This document shows, one piece after another, positions 1,541 to 12,138 of a stretch of 24,331 bases of DNA. Both the position numbers and the translations under genes were made by a program. This DNA comes from a virus. Lineage: Duplodnaviria; Heunggongvirae; Uroviricota; Caudoviricetes. The notes under the pieces are model-generated. The model was not told where the DNA came from. It worked only from the letters and a program-made list of their open reading frames with translations, and ran no database searches. Each line of letters opens with the position of its first letter. Position 1 is the stretch's first letter. Location: the IMG/VR virus record IMGVR_UViG_2778261216_000006. The stretch is one strand, 5' to 3'.

Positions 1541-1612
1541 CAAATTGACTACACCATTAACTACACCGTTCGGTGCACTGTATGAAACAACGTGGAACAA
1601 ATAGACACAAGA
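1541..1612. repeat. Left arm-type repeat (ATTGACTACACCATTAACTACACCG ... GAAACAACGTGGAACAA)
   Basis: ~75-bp imperfect direct repeat of 16455-16535; it lies ~70 bp inside the core, as expected for integrase/Xis arm sites. Confidence 0.5.
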
Positions 1613-7787: not shown

Positions 7788-8993
7788 TTAATCGTCGTCC
7801 TGTGGCAGTTCCAGAATCTTGATCGCGTTCGAATCCACCACGCCACCGCCTAAATATTTCTGCGTGAAAATTTTGATGAAGCCCGGCTCTGTGAGGTTGT
7901 CCGGTCTGGTGCGAACACCTGTTTCGTGATCAACAATGTAGTAACCGCGTTTGAAGTCACCCAGGGCAATAACGTTATCAGGCATAAACTCCAGATATTC
8001 GACCGGAAGGCCCAGCAACGTATCAGGATCACCCGCCTGTAAACGGTCGCGCCAGATGTAATCACCGTTCGCGTTCTTCACCTTCTGAAGTTTTGCCGCC
8101 GTCGTGGAGTTAACCACCCAGACCGCGTTTTTGCGGTATTTTTTACGTAATGCAAATTTCAGGTCGATCAACGGGTCCGCAGATGTCCACGCCAGAGATT
8201 CGGAAGGTTTAATTACCTGCAACGTACCAAAATCACGCTCTTTGTCGTTCTTCTCTGCACGGGGTACGGATAAAAAACCTTTTGCTTTTTTGTCACCGTC
8301 GCCCACAACCAGATCGCTTTCTTCGGTTTCCGTGAAGGTGTCGCCAATCTCACCCGTCAGCCATGAAAGGATGTCCACATCGGAAAAATCCACGATTTCC
8401 TGTGTGGTGCGCGGGTACGCATAGACCGGATACAGCTTAATGCTCACCTCGTTAATCTGCGGGGTGCTGGTCTGTTCGCGTGTCTTACCCTCTTCACCGT
8501 GGTTAACGGTCGCACCGCCAGCGGAAACAAGCTGCTTAAACTCGTTGCTGCTGATTTTCTTCACGGTACAGATGCGGCGCATGGTGGACTCATCCGCCAG
8601 CATTCGCATGATTTCGGTGTTCAGCTCGGGGATAACGGTATAACCACCATCAGCGGGAACGCCTGTACTTAATGCGCGGGTTTCACCCGTCAGAATGTAG
8701 TTTCGTAGTTCTGCGGGGTCAGTGGTCTGACTGCTTTTACCTGGCTTGCTGCGCTCTTCGTCTGCAATGGCTTCAAGGCGGGAAATGTCTTTATCGAGGG
8801 ATTCAGCTTTAGCGCGTAATTCGTCAAATTTTGCGCCCTCAGCATCGTTAAGACTGCGGTTTTCTTTTTCCGCGTTCTCCAGCATGTCGCGCATCTGATT
8901 TTTAATGGCGGTTTTCTGCTGGCGTAATTCGATTATTCTCGGCATAAAAAAAGTCCTGGGGTTAAGTAAGGAACTCCAGGACGCGGCAAACAC
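7788..8993 (-). CDS. Major capsid protein, HK97 family
   Basis: 401 aa; N-terminal coiled-coil delta-domain-like region, then a conserved HK97-fold body; start (GTG at 8993 or internal Met) uncertain. Confidence 0.93.
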   Translation of the reverse strand: MFAASWSSLLNPRTFFMPRIIELRQQKTAIKNQMRDMLENAEKENRSLNDAEGAKFDELRAKAESLDKDISRLEAIADEERSKPGKSSQTTDPAELRNYILTGETRALSTGVPADGGYTVIPELNTEIMRMLADESTMRRICTVKKISSNEFKQLVSAGGATVNHGEEGKTREQTSTPQINEVSIKLYPVYAYPRTTQEIVDFSDVDILSWLTGEIGDTFTETEESDLVVGDGDKKAKGFLSVPRAEKNDKERDFGTLQVIKPSESLAWTSADPLIDLKFALRKKYRKNAVWVVNSTTAAKLQKVKNANGDYIWRDRLQAGDPDTLLGLPVEYLEFMPDNVIALGDFKRGYYIVDHETGVRTRPDNLTEPGFIKIFTQKYLGGGVVDSNAIKILELPQDDD

Positions 8994-9035
8994 TCAACCG
9001 TTTTTCATAAGGAAATCAGCAATCGCACCGATCGT

Positions 9036-9083
9036 TTTCCCGCCTGGTAATGAATATTGGCGAGCACATTAACAGGCGGGAAA
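9036..9083. promoter_or_regulatory. 11-bp perfect inverted repeat TTTCCCGCCTG / CAGGCGGGAAA with 26-nt spacer in the leader of the capsid operon
   Basis: Read directly; located 45-90 bp upstream of the capsid gene start. Confidence 0.35.
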
Positions 9084-9157
9084 GTGGCCCCAGCGTCCTG
9101 GCACCACGGGCGAGAATAATCATGATTCAGTTCGGGTAAAATATGCCGATCCGCTCA

Positions 9158-9189
9158 GTGAACAACGTGGAACAACCACGAACAAATAA
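9158..9189. promoter_or_regulatory. Dyad motif GTGAACAACGTGGAACAACCACGAACAA upstream of the capsid operon
   Basis: Contains palindrome CGTGG-AACAA-CCACG; near-identical copy, inverted, at 15115-15145; half-sites inside both att arm repeats. Confidence 0.4.
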
Positions 9190-9226
9190 TTTACAAAAAA
9201 TAACAAAAAGCCGGATTGCTCCGGCT
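9190..9226 (-). terminator. Rho-independent terminator (hairpin AGCCGGAGCAATCCGGCT plus T-run on minus strand)
   Basis: Stem-loop followed by TTTTTGTTATTTTTT on the minus strand, just downstream of ORF 9246..9470. Confidence 0.6.
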
Positions 9227-9245
9227 GTATGTGCTGTATGGGTGC

Positions 9246-9470
9246 TCAGTCTCTGATCCCTTTCAGAAATTCTATCAATGCATCTGTCTGTTCAGGATTT
9301 ACTGCCAGCATTTCACCGGATAGCGCGCAACGAACAAAACCATGATGATCCTTTTCAATCAGCGCCCCCGTTTCCAGAAATGCGCGGTAATCAGTGATAT
9401 TCATCGTCTCCATGTTGTCAGCATGGTATTTATCACGCTGTTTAAGTATCTCATCAAATTTCATCGGCAT
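9246..9470 (-). CDS. Hypothetical protein (74 aa), moron-like gene flanked by two copies of the same terminator
   Basis: Internal Met of track ORF 9246..9548, preceded by GAGGAAAACGCA; no family recognised. Confidence 0.55.
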   Translation of the reverse strand: MPMKFDEILKQRDKYHADNMETMNITDYRAFLETGALIEKDHHGFVRCALSGEMLAVNPEQTDALIEFLKGIRD

Positions 9471-9562
9471 TGCGTTTTCCTCTGTTGTGTCTGTTTGTTT
9501 CAGATAGTAACTATGCCGGACCGTGACGAAAAGCCAGTAGTGCTCCATACCGTTTCAAATGA

Positions 9563-9588
9563 CGCAAAAAAGCCGGATTGCTCCGGCT
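9563..9588 (-). terminator. Rho-independent terminator (second copy of AGCCGGAGCAATCCGGCT hairpin)
   Basis: Same hairpin plus T-run on the minus strand, downstream of the PerC-like gene. Confidence 0.6.
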
Positions 9589-9610
9589 GCGTGGTGTGGT
9601 TCTGATATTC

Positions 9611-9859
9611 CTACTCAGCTAATTTGCTCAGCCCCATGTCTGCGTAAGTGCGATTTACTGCATTTCTCAGGTCTGCGTAGTTCTCCGTTGGCGGCTCCGG
9701 TGGCCTCTGTGCCTTCCTGGAACATTCCAGCCGTCGCATCGTAACCTGATGCCGTTCCTTGTCTGTCTCCACCAGTTGCATGACTTCACCCCATCGCGCC
9801 GACGCCCTCCGGTAAAATCCTTTCGCCTCGAGTTCCTCCGCTATGCGGTCATGTACCAT
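9611..9859 (-). CDS. PerC-family-like transcriptional regulator (82 aa)
   Basis: Start at internal Met with strong SD (GAGGGGGTGA); MVHDRIAEELEAKGFYRRASARWGEVM resembles the PerC-family N-terminus (from memory). Confidence 0.5.
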   Translation of the reverse strand: MVHDRIAEELEAKGFYRRASARWGEVMQLVETDKERHQVTMRRLECSRKAQRPPEPPTENYADLRNAVNRTYADMGLSKLAE

Positions 9860-9869
9860 CGTCACCCCC

Positions 9870-10280
9870 TCAGAACGGAATACCGTCACCGTAAGGGTCA
9901 TCGCCTCCCGCTGGTGGCTGATTACCCTGTGTGCCTGTGGTTTTGCGTCTGTTCCCGCCTGGACGTGCCGCGCGGGCACTGATTACGCTGTCTGCAATAA
10001 CCTGATACCCCCGCCGCGTTTCCCCGTTCTGTCCGGTCCACTGGCTTACCTGCATCGTGCCGGATACGCTGGCAACATCGCCTTTTTGATGTTTAGCCAG
10101 GAAATCGGCCTGTTTGCCAAATGCGATAACCGATAACCATAACGTCGCCTGTCCGTCCTGTGCCTGGCTGCATGGCAAAGATACCGCCATACGCGCCAGC
10201 GTCATCGGTGTGCCCTTGCTGGTCTGTTTTACCTGCGGGTCGTCCACCAGCCGCCCGTAAGCCGCTATCTGTGCTGTCAT
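9870..10280 (-). CDS. Single-stranded DNA-binding protein (SSB-like)
   Basis: 136 aa; OB-fold core blocks, Gly/Pro-rich linker and acidic C-terminal tip ending DGIPF; ATGA overlap with the upstream gene. Confidence 0.8.
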   Translation of the reverse strand: MTAQIAAYGRLVDDPQVKQTSKGTPMTLARMAVSLPCSQAQDGQATLWLSVIAFGKQADFLAKHQKGDVASVSGTMQVSQWTGQNGETRRGYQVIADSVISARAARPGGNRRKTTGTQGNQPPAGGDDPYGDGIPF

Positions 10281-10528
10281 GCTGTCTGCTCTCCGGTTTT
10301 AACGTTGATTGTTGTTACCTGTTCCGCTTCGGCAATCTCCCGTTCTGTCAGCGTGGCAAAGTTTGCCGCCGCTGTTGTCATGAATGCGCTTATCAGTTCG
10401 GGATGCTCCTTCGCGTATCCTTCCCCCGCGTGGCGGTCTATCGTTCTGATTGCCACCTTTAAAGCCAGTTCAGCCATATCTAACGCCTTATATTTCGGCT
10501 CTGTTCTGTCTCTGCGTTTTTGGGTCAT
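10277..10528 (-). CDS. Hypothetical protein (start uncertain, 66-84 aa)
   Basis: Track ORF 10277..10558 overlaps the iterons at its 5' end, so an internal Met (10528 or 10477) is the likely start; translationally coupled to ssb. Confidence 0.5.
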   Translation of the reverse strand: MTQKRRDRTEPKYKALDMAELALKVAIRTIDRHAGEGYAKEHPELISAFMTTAAANFATLTEREIAEAEQVTTINVKTGEQTA

Positions 10529-10540
10529 TTCTCGCAACCT

Positions 10541-10730
10541 CTCACTTTTTCGCCTCACTTTTTCAAGCGTCTCACTTCGTCGCAGTTGGGATTTTTGGTT
10601 TTTCTATGTGTGTGTTTCATAAGTATTTTTTTACCCCTCACTTTTGAGGATGTATACAGGTCGAAAAGTGAGGGAGAGCAGGCTAATTTTGGCCCTCTTT
10701 CCACCCCCCTCGCTTTTGCTCCTCACTTTT
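10541..10730. repeat. Iteron array (CTCACTTTT repeats, at least 6 copies in both orientations) with AT-rich spacer: candidate island replication origin
   Basis: Copies near 10541, 10554, 10571 (variant), 10637, 10665 (inverted), 10709 (variant), 10722; immediately downstream of the replication helicase gene. Confidence 0.55.
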
Positions 10731-12138
10731 ATAGCGGCGCTACATCATCCCCATCGATACGAATAACCCCATCTTTTTCCAGCTTGTACAGCCAGCGCCG
10801 GAAGTTTTTCATTTCATACCCCAGTTTTTTCATGTCATCACGTAACAGCGGGATCGTGCACTTGTCGCCGTTCTGTGTGCGTGAACGGATGCACCCCCAT
10901 AGCGCGGTATGGTTTTCCGTCTTGTTCCCTGCCTCCTCGATGCGCTCCAGTTCAACGGGAGGGCGCGGCTTATCCACCACCACCAGCGACGTGATTAACT
11001 CCCCGTCAGCGTCGGTAAAAAGCTCCACCACCCGCAAATCATAGGCAGCCTCTTTGAGTTCCTCCGCGTCCTTCATTTTGGTGCATGAGATAACCAGCGC
11101 TTCGCTTCCTGCGTCCTCCCTGCGTATCCGGTATTCAGCATCCAGTGATGCACGAAATGCACTGGAACCGCGCGCGCCTTTCGTCTCATCCTTGCCGGAA
11201 TGGTGAACCACCAGCACCGTGGCCCCTGTGCGTCGTTTCAGTTCGTCACACCCACGGATAAACGCCCCCATGTCGCGGGAGTCATTTTCATCATTGCCGC
11301 CAAAGCAGCGCGCCAGCGTGTCCAGAATAATCATGCGAACAGGTTTACCCGTTTCCCTCTCCACCTGACTGGCAGCAATAACCAGTTCATCAACATCAAG
11401 CGGGACAGCCGGAAAGATGGGACGGTTTACCAGATACAGATTTTTCACCTGCTCACCGTGCACAACCTCCCAGGCTTTTACACGACGCGGAACGCCGATA
11501 CCGCCTTCACCAACCACATAGAGAACAGCGCCATGCGCCACCCTGCGGCCTCCCCACTGGCGGCCCGTGGAAACGTGACACGCCCACGATCCGGCAAGGA
11601 ATGATTTATAGGAACCGCTCGCCCCGTATATGCTGCAAAGCGACGATGCCGGAATAATCCCCTTTACCACGTAATCAAGCTGTGTGTCGTATCCGGTAGA
11701 TCCAACGCTCATCGGTAGCGTGGTTTTTCGCTGGGGAATTTTTTTCATGACCAGGCTTTCCCCGCGTTCCCATGCCTCCCTAAGCCGTGGAAGCTGGTCG
11801 CTCCATTCCTCCAGCAATTCGAAATTTTCAGAAAGTAGCCGCGCCTCCTGGACTCCGGCGATCGCCAGTTTCGTGGCGATGGTTAACAGCTGCGGCTCTT
11901 CAATATTTCCGGCGCGTATCACCGTCGCCCTGTATCGCCCATCATCAACAATCTGGAGGTTATCCAGTTCGCTTAACTGATAACGCCCCAGATAAACGGG
12001 AGGGACTGGATCGCCTGCTTTTTTGGCCTGTGCAATGATGTAATGCTCTGCGAATGAGTGAGCATCAATACCCGCAAAAATAATCGCATCGGTGTATTTG
12101 TCTTTCGGTAATAGTTTTACGTTCGGTGCCAGTTTCAT
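10729..12138 (-). CDS. Replication protein, RepA-like AAA ATPase/helicase (satellite pri-rep type)
   Basis: 469 aa; Walker A (YGASGSYKSF), Walker B (RMIILDTL), VVHHSGKDETKGARGSSA block. Confidence 0.85.
   Translation of the reverse strand: MKLAPNVKLLPKDKYTDAIIFAGIDAHSFAEHYIIAQAKKAGDPVPPVYLGRYQLSELDNLQIVDDGRYRATVIRAGNIEEPQLLTIATKLAIAGVQEARLLSENFELLEEWSDQLPRLREAWERGESLVMKKIPQRKTTLPMSVGSTGYDTQLDYVVKGIIPASSLCSIYGASGSYKSFLAGSWACHVSTGRQWGGRRVAHGAVLYVVGEGGIGVPRRVKAWEVVHGEQVKNLYLVNRPIFPAVPLDVDELVIAASQVERETGKPVRMIILDTLARCFGGNDENDSRDMGAFIRGCDELKRRTGATVLVVHHSGKDETKGARGSSAFRASLDAEYRIRREDAGSEALVISCTKMKDAEELKEAAYDLRVVELFTDADGELITSLVVVDKPRPPVELERIEEAGNKTENHTALWGCIRSRTQNGDKCTIPLLRDDMKKLGYEMKNFRRWLYKLEKDGVIRIDGDDVAPL

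Follow-up and report, generated by a model that had tools for sequence, protein, structure and literature searches.

We analyzed a 24,331-nt stretch of DNA (the window), IMG/VR virus record IMGVR_UViG_2778261216_000006, and in it a small gene, ORF74 (9246..9470, minus strand), which lies between two copies of one predicted intrinsic terminator. We identify the window as a capsid-forming phage-inducible chromosomal island (cf-PICI) of the Sakai "Sp7" type. On the minus strand, its genes run from a RepA helicase gene through a phrog_1231-family gene, an SSB gene, and a PerC-family regulator gene to the first terminator (hairpin B), ORF74, the second terminator (hairpin A), and then the capsid, protease, and portal genes. 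An initial annotation of the window had described ORF74 as a moron-like gene in a cassette inserted by recombination at the terminator. Our analysis favors, with some reserve, a different history: ORF74 is probably an old satellite gene that a duplicated terminator has made deletable and exchangeable, and its presence in some islands and absence from others would mainly reflect recurrent loss and allelic exchange rather than recent insertion of a moron.

Exactly two matches to the hairpin, AGCCGGAGCAATCCGGCT, are present in the window, both with 0 mismatches, against a chance expectation of 0.01, and two copies were found in 0 of 100 shuffles. With its T-run, the hairpin lies inside a 23-nt direct repeat whose copies (9205..9227 and 9567..9589, no strand assigned) are spaced 362 nt apart. 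The copies are 100% identical to each other and thus closer than the near-identity first described. Both passed an intrinsic-terminator scan (7-bp stem with 5 GC pairs, 4-nt loop, T-run), and in silico both have the form expected of such terminators, with a GC-rich stem, a short loop, a 3′ U-tract, and sense orientation after a gene. Hairpin B (9566..9588, minus strand) consists of a stem-loop at 9588..9571 with a 7-bp stem and a GCAA loop, followed by a U-tract at 9570..9566; its predicted fold is −16.1 kcal/mol (z, −3.7). Hairpin A (9205..9226, minus strand) consists of a stem-loop at 9226..9209 and a U-tract at 9208..9205, followed by a T-rich stretch (−14.1 kcal/mol; z, −5.0). Hairpin B starts 22 nt past the PerC stop codon and hairpin A starts 19 nt past the ORF74 stop, which agrees with the initial assignment of one terminator to the end of the PerC operon and the other to ORF74. 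Across loci, the loop reads GCAA, GAAA, GTAA, or GGAA. All are of the GNRA form and only the N base varies, as expected if an RNA hairpin is under selection.

The exact 23-mer was present in only 48 of 2.9 million IMG/VR contigs, and those contigs whose names overlap the loci compared here belong to this island family. The terminator seems to be confined to this family, in which it closes several modules: the hairpin was found after PerC, after ORF74, and, in decoration-type islands, after a third gene. The third copy has a GAAA loop and lies about 2.27 kb downstream of hairpin A (L006:270; L196:3120; about +2270 nt from hairpin A in L013, L026, and others), at the end of a 137-aa gene that has the decoration-protein module on one side and a Nu1-type TerS gene on the other. 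We also found that homology between islands with different capsid modules stops at hairpin A (L004 versus the window).

ORF74 is a genuine protein-coding gene. Its start codon is the ATG at 9470, with AGAGGAA ahead of it, and its frame ends at 9246; RefSeq annotates the same 74-aa product in related genomes. From 43 loci we obtained 15 nucleotide alleles, 14 of them intact. The window and Sakai alleles differ by 13 synonymous and 6 nonsynonymous changes (dS, 0.37; dN, 0.035; dN/dS, 0.09), and the mean dN/dS was 0.13 for allele pairs with a dS of >0.1. With a dN/dS of about 0.1, ORF74 is therefore a real gene, and the reading frame is conserved as coding sequence, as the initial annotation had assumed. 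The predicted product is an acidic protein of 8.6 kDa (pI 5.0) that matches the phrog_1957 profile over its full length (residues 1-74 on profile positions 1-74 of 82; E, 2.4e-40). We rejected a longer, 100-aa version of the frame that starts at 9548. Its N-terminal extension is unconserved and is disrupted in the divergent locus L196, homologues align from MP..., and the ribosome-binding site (RBS) precedes ATG 9470.

We compared the site among related islands, scoring it as filled when it held two hairpins and ORF74 and as empty when it held one hairpin and was exactly 362 nt shorter. Several genomes matched a 996-nt query in two pieces spanning about 634-641 nt. Locus L001, for example, is 99% identical to the window and 362 nt shorter, and its single hairpin has the PerC-side flank upstream and the capsid-side flank downstream. 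Both hairpins were present in all 40 loci with a complete gene (39 IMG/VR contigs and one Shigella flexneri chromosome), at positions −119/−120 and +10/+19. Among 80 IMG/VR loci anchored on PerC, 33 were filled, 46 were empty, and 1 was truncated; ORF74 with a single hairpin, or two adjacent hairpins without ORF74, was seen in 0 of the 80. A comparison of gene presence with terminator number, which the initial annotation had proposed, thus gave double terminators in 40/40 gene-bearing loci and single ones in the empty loci. Filled and empty states both occurred with each PerC allele group and with each capsid-module type (HK97-type and lambda-E/decoration-type). In complete E. coli genomes, we counted 592 ORF74 sites in 539 genomes versus 917 PerC-type sites in 784 genomes, so that about two-thirds of the sites are filled in a collection in which O157:H7 is oversampled.

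The breakpoints between filled and empty islands fall in or at the hairpin. In one background (PerC-A flank, HK97-type leader), the empty junctions have two forms, ...CACACCACGC-hairpin and ...CACACCATAC-hairpin, and the latter carries two bases that flank hairpin A in filled islands. The two forms therefore reflect different crossover points and independent events. The cassette is also a mosaic block of its own. Between the window and L008, it carries 11 substitutions in 344 positions, versus 5 in 901 in the immediate flanks (Fisher P = 7e-4). This test uses local flanks; it replaced a Fisher test over 3.5 kb, in which other mosaic blocks acted as confounders. The Shigella locus has a different upstream region, yet its cassette and that of the window share 99.7% identity.

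Homologues of ORF74 with 31-49% identity hold the same slot in satellites of Klebsiella, Enterobacter, Citrobacter, Salmonella, and Xenorhabdus, after the replication gene (rep/pri) and an iteron-rich origin and before the capsid gene. The slot is kept beside three replication genes (RepA AAA_25, D5/DUF5906 primase, and Toprim primase) and three capsid types (HK97-like, ClpP-capsid fusion, and, in E. coli, the lambda-E type). In these other genera, the terminator lies downstream of the homologue only. The initial annotation had named a gene with a single terminator in related islands as the finding that would tell against its proposal; this arrangement holds in the other genera and not within E. 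coli.

Linkage within E. coli points the same way. The allele of the cassette leader and the allele of PerC are completely linked (7/7 and 31/31, or 38/38 loci), and the two allele groups have diverged about equally in the cassette and PerC regions (89-90% and 85-89% identity, respectively). Complete linkage with about equal divergence is not the pattern expected of a repeatedly arriving mobile cassette. Locus L196 has the most divergent E. coli-type allele (74% amino acid identity), and there PerC, the hairpin, the leader, the ORF, and the second hairpin are all present, with hairpin B decayed and hairpin A shortened. The same slot in other genera, the linkage and codivergence with PerC, and L196 taken together suggest that the empty sites are best read as deletions.

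According to this model, the unit would consist of terminator B, a constrained leader with an RBS, ORF74, and terminator A, placed between the end of PerC and the capsid operon. Recombination or replication slippage between the 23-nt repeats would remove exactly one unit and leave one hairpin, and recombination at one hairpin would swap the neighboring module. In the cf-PICI-like satellites of other genera, the family member would simply be the last gene before the capsid operon, with its single terminator. The junctions point to recombination at the hairpins as the putative mechanism. RecA-dependent exchange has a minimal length close to the 23 nt of this perfect direct repeat, which would be well suited to slippage during replication of a hairpin or to annealing of single strands by recombinases that the helper encodes. 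Deletion alone covers all of the observed junctions.

Several observations weigh against this model. The junctions alone do not prove the direction of single events, and insertion of a hairpin-leader-ORF segment upstream of a resident hairpin would yield the same filled structure. The samples in the site census were not dereplicated, and O157:H7 is overrepresented in them. The Arsenophonus homologue follows TerL and is not ahead of a capsid gene, one divergent homologue is an orphan chromosomal gene, and another lies in a PICI-like island without a recognized capsid gene. As for the unit as an autonomous transcription unit, no consensus sigma-70 promoter was called in the ORF74 leader on the strand of the gene, and ORF74 could be expressed by read-through of hairpin B.

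The leader itself is constrained. It spans 95 nt (9471..9565, minus strand) and contains a −10-like TACTAT (9509..9504), an invariant AACAAACAGACACAACA (9499..9483), and the RBS AGAGGAA (9483..9477). In the constraint analysis of loci, its distal 60 nt (9530..9471) had 4 variable sites in 60, versus 19 in 74 at third codon positions (P = 0.005). The distal leader is thus conserved like first and second codon positions, and the proximal 40 nt evolve like synonymous sites. The leader motif is kept in L196, and the leader RNA has no stable fold (z, +1.05). The unit would have its own promoter, and because the conserved distal leader contains TACTAT yet has no consensus sigma-70 site, we infer that this promoter is weak or activator dependent. 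Most transcripts of the PerC operon should end at hairpin B because of its canonical form. A near copy of AACAAACAGACACAACA with 2 mismatches lies at 1596-1612 (plus strand), beyond the TerL end of the island, so that the window holds two matches versus 0.08 by chance. RefSeq places a frameshifted "trigger factor" pseudogene or a 42-aa hypothetical gene over the PerC 3′ end, hairpin B, and the ORF74 leader (L200:711-826; L004:1808-1936). These calls are almost certainly spurious and cover noncoding sequence.

How the second terminator arose may have an answer that is compatible with loss and exchange, and we consider it plausible but clearly tentative. The ancestral order would have been a small gene, ORF74, and a terminator, and a GC-rich block of SSB, PerC, and terminator would have been inserted upstream of ORF74, which would have split this operon and created the second terminator. 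Consistently with this, the phrog_1231 protein of the window matches the product of a Xenorhabdus gene (L140:4749-4982; 47% identity; E, 3e-15) that lies 18 nt upstream of the Xenorhabdus ORF74 homologue. Neither SSB nor PerC was found in the interval in the sampled cf-PICI-like islands of other genera, and the SSB-PerC block has a GC content of 57-60%, versus 44-55% in its surroundings. However, the adjacency to a phrog_1231 gene was seen in one genus only. In L131, Salmonella, and Xenorhabdus, a small gene ends 9-18 nt before the homologue, and in the first two of these, it encodes an unrelated small protein. In addition, the stop of the phrog_1231 gene overlaps the SSB start by 4 nt in the window, which suggests long integration, and the phrog_1231 gene is directly beside ORF74 in 0 of 40 E. 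coli loci.

The proposal of the initial annotation, that the empty one-terminator site is ancestral and that recombination at the terminator brought in ORF74 as a moron and so duplicated the terminator, appears unlikely to us, although much of its descriptive basis holds. The cassette is a discrete unit and its own mosaic block. Empty sites are common and precise, so that an extra gene is present or absent between otherwise adjacent genes, with sites differing by exactly 362 nt. The gene has a constrained leader and, in silico, its own downstream factor-independent terminator (hairpin A and its U-tract), and the GC content of the cassette is 44-46%, versus 57-60% in the upstream block. What we did not find is the mark of acquired foreign DNA. 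The family occupies the same slot in five other genera, cassette alleles were never on the "wrong" PerC allele (38/38) and have diverged about as much as PerC, and the divergent L196 already has both hairpins. Insertion would still require at least one deletion to give the ...CACGC empty junction. Thus, a gene flanked by terminators need not be a recent insertion, and recurrent loss of an old gene accounts better for the sites seen here.

We next consider the ORF74 protein. Exhaustive and word-seeded profile searches recovered family members of 65-90 aa with 31-49% identity, all annotated as hypothetical, from Klebsiella, Enterobacter, Citrobacter, Raoultella, Salmonella, Xenorhabdus, Arsenophonus, and other hosts. 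The family is uniformly acidic (pI 4.4-5.5). ORF74 and 23-49 family members were searched against Pfam, NCBIfam, and PADLOC without a match; with the defense-system models of PADLOC-DB 2.0, ORF74 had no match and 23 family members gave noise only (E > 0.01). The AlphaFold2 model of ORF74 (pLDDT, 89) has three helices, a three-stranded sheet, and a C-terminal helix, and a structure search with this model returned no neighbor. A sequence-profile search of the PDB gave N.BspD6I with a whole-sequence E of 0.003 and a per-domain E of 3.3, which we treated as noise. A tblastn search of 50,697 deposited phage genomes with three family members as queries found no member of the family, and we therefore rejected a phage origin of ORF74. 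We also rejected a two-gene module of the toxin-antitoxin kind; the upstream partner varies between two unrelated small-protein families, and ORF74 has been lost on its own elsewhere.

These properties tentatively suggest, at rather less than even weight, that the ORF74 protein acts in trans by binding a protein of the helper phage or host, in interference, in counterdefense, or in the protection of replicating island DNA. This reading follows from the protein being acidic and without a nucleic-acid-binding signature, from its absence from the phages searched and from many intact-looking islands, and from its not being tied to one replicon, capsid type, or capsid leader. ORF74 would then be dispensable for island transfer. 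The phage interference or antidefense that the initial annotation had called plausible is contradicted by none of our results, and none of them favors it specifically. Against the proposal, it was reached only by exclusion and from composition. Regulation in cis, with ORF74 as an activator or other regulator coupled to the adjacent capsid (late) operon, seems to us improbable. In most genera, the capsid leader comes directly after ORF74, and the modeled three helices and small sheet may loosely recall winged-helix proteins; the variety of capsid types and leaders beside the gene, together with its acidity, led us to the trans-acting reading. We give almost no credence to an integron attC-like or IS200/IS605-like system, in which a dedicated recombinase (site-specific or acting on single strands) would recognize the hairpins and ORF74 would be a true mobile cassette: hairpin-forming repeats do surround a single gene and the same hairpin does recur at other module ends, but the cassette occupies one genomic slot only (40/40), the crossover points vary within and beside the repeat, the Pfam scan found no IntI- or TnpA-type gene in the island, and the hairpins have a canonical terminator form, with GNRA-preserving loops and sense orientation after three different genes.

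If ORF74 does act in trans, this uncharacterized small acidic family, seemingly confined to PICI-type satellites, might represent a new helper-manipulation or counterdefense factor, a possibility that we hold only loosely. The family is retained beside the junction of origin and capsid gene in cf-PICIs of many Enterobacterales. Such a factor would, for example, bind a helper-phage or host protein and favor packaging or survival of the satellite, and the duplicated terminators would make the trait rapidly switchable. A conserved small-protein family found only in PICI-type satellites is a clear target for knockout and expression. cf-PICIs were recognized recently, published work has centered on their packaging genes, and the genes of the replication-capsid interval are undescribed. 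The locus offers a sequence-level example of satellites gaining, losing, and shuffling accessory functions, in which one island-specific terminator would be a transcription stop, a module boundary, and, when duplicated, a built-in deletion device.

The moron concept is reportedly due to Juhala, Hendrix, and colleagues, who are said to have set it out in 2000 for the lambdoid phages HK97 and HK022. Like a lambdoid moron, ORF74 is one additional gene, present or absent between otherwise adjacent genes and located between modules, that has an intrinsic terminator of its own downstream, and its constrained leader suggests that it also has expression signals. In contrast to these morons, no consensus promoter was found for ORF74, and the gene is syntenic across genera, codiverges with its neighbor, shows a polymorphism best read as loss, and resides in a satellite. 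Modular evolution is an idea attributed to Susskind and Botstein, and boundary or "linker" sequences at lambdoid module junctions were reportedly described by Clark et al. in 2001. The hairpin resembles them in being a short conserved sequence at module ends at which homology breaks exactly. It differs in being a functional-looking terminator, in standing twice in tandem around one gene, and in that it would also drive deletion within the element. SaPIs encode Ppi, a small helper-interference protein. ORF74 may be compared with Ppi, as a functional analogy, in being a small satellite-specific protein encoded between replication and packaging genes that would be dispensable and allelic.

The accessory or immune region beside pri in PICIs, which carries Tai systems (PMC11364771), provides a further parallel. 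That region is likewise mid-island, after the replication gene and before packaging, and the islands of other genera likewise have extra genes between the ORF74 homologue and the capsid gene. TaiEcA is a 26-kDa protein, whereas ORF74 is 8.6 kDa, lacks a PADLOC match, and, unlike cargo genes, is conserved across genera. The island architecture and gene set of the window are those of EcCIEDL933, the prototype cf-PICI (10.1101/2022.09.08.507074; 10.1101/2025.02.11.637232). The searched passages of these two papers treat the packaging module and alpA and make no mention of the ORF74 gene, PerC, or the terminators. A literature search for ORF74 locus tags found nothing.

We assigned the window to the cf-PICIs because its gene architecture is as described for these elements (10.1101/2022.09.08.507074). 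Pfam calls on the island ORFs gave an integrase (PF00589, PF13356), AlpA (PF05930), RepA (PF13481, AAA_25), SSB, PerC, an HK97-type capsid, an S78 protease, a portal, head completion and connector proteins, HNH, TerS, and TerL. Thus, int and alpA lie at one end with a replication module (rep/pri), and a full capsid and packaging set (capsid, protease, portal, connectors, HNH, TerS, and TerL) is present without tail genes; the island ORFs that we scanned gave no tail-family match. For EcCIEDL933, experiments have shown that induction depends on a helper and that helper tails are used (10.1101/2022.09.08.507074). The region matches hundreds of E. coli chromosomes, including the Sakai "prophage Sp7; untypable," to which it is 90.9% identical and in which it is annotated as SSB, pchE, a 74-aa hypothetical protein (ECs_1589), and a major head protein. 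We infer that Sakai Sp7 is equivalent to EcCIEDL933.

The neighboring genes are all on the minus strand. They are the RepA helicase gene (12138..10729; PF13481), the phrog_1231-family gene (10277..10558; E, 3.6e-51), the SSB gene (9870..10280; PF00436; E, 6e-17), the PerC-family regulator gene (9611..9859; PF06069; E, 3e-35), which is the last before hairpin B and corresponds to an 82-aa coding sequence in RefSeq, and the HK97-type major capsid gene (7788..8945; PF05065; E, 2e-61; start as in RefSeq), which is the first of the packaging operon. In a Shigella flexneri chromosome (L050:2600-2900; CP182556.1), a deletion fuses the SSB 5′ end to the PerC 3′ end, upstream of an intact hairpin B.

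The capsid gene follows hairpin A after a leader of 258 nt (8946..9204, minus strand), so that ORF74 does lie just upstream of the capsid operon, as first annotated. Repeat and fold analysis of this leader revealed three elements. Directly after hairpin A is the motif TTTGTAAATTATTTGTTCG (9197..9179, minus strand). The same motif is found in an island of other Enterobacteriaceae (L131:5246-5270), directly past the stop codon of the ORF81 homologue, and is a candidate for the start of a conserved late-operon control region. An inverted repeat at 9036-9083, with 17-nt arms (94% complementary) and a 14-nt loop, could be an operator or an RNA structure. Finally, a third terminator-like hairpin with a U7 tract (8982..8946, minus strand; GTCCTGGAGTT...AACCCCAGGAC; −14.1 kcal/mol; z, −3.4) abuts the capsid ATG (8945). 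It is conserved in L001-L003, L005, and L007, and the likely capsid RBS (AGGA) lies within its 3′ arm. This hairpin may attenuate or gate expression of the capsid operon.

The edges of hairpin A show smaller rearrangements. The 19-nt spacer between the ORF74 stop and hairpin A (9227..9245, minus strand) holds part of a 9-nt tandem duplication, CATACAGCA / CATACAGCC (9240..9223, minus strand), which overlaps the first bases of the hairpin. The duplication is present in the "+19" loci and absent from the "+10" loci, and it could mark slippage at the edge of the hairpin. L005 and L196 contain about 280 nt of noncoding filler, located after the PerC hairpin in the former and after hairpin A in the latter, and the start of this filler resembles the flank of the third hairpin copy. 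This similarity suggests that further rearrangements could have been mediated by the hairpin.

Three observations concern the islands of other genera. Iteron arrays occupy the interval that separates the replication gene from the ORF74 homologue or from its small upstream partner (L134:4786-5000, L137:4786-5000, and L140:4630-4720), with at least 8 repeats of the unit [AT][AG][AG]TGCGGC and with TTGTCGGT as the Xenorhabdus repeats; they are probably the replication origins of the islands. The interval between the homologue and the capsid gene looks like a hot spot for accessory genes. In Enterobacter, Citrobacter, and Klebsiella, it holds genes for proteins of 170-272 aa that have no Pfam or PADLOC match (L134:5409-6194; L190:4316-5134, minus strand; L137:5294-5806, minus strand). 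Members of the family also occur on island-size "non-mobilizable plasmids," namely CP018459.1 (K. pneumoniae; 16,971 bp) and CP038627.1 and CP123539.1 (Arsenophonus nasoniae; ~16 kb), the latter two of which also encode a portal, a terminase, and a primase. These plasmid records are probably circular cf-PICI-like elements, excised or episomal.

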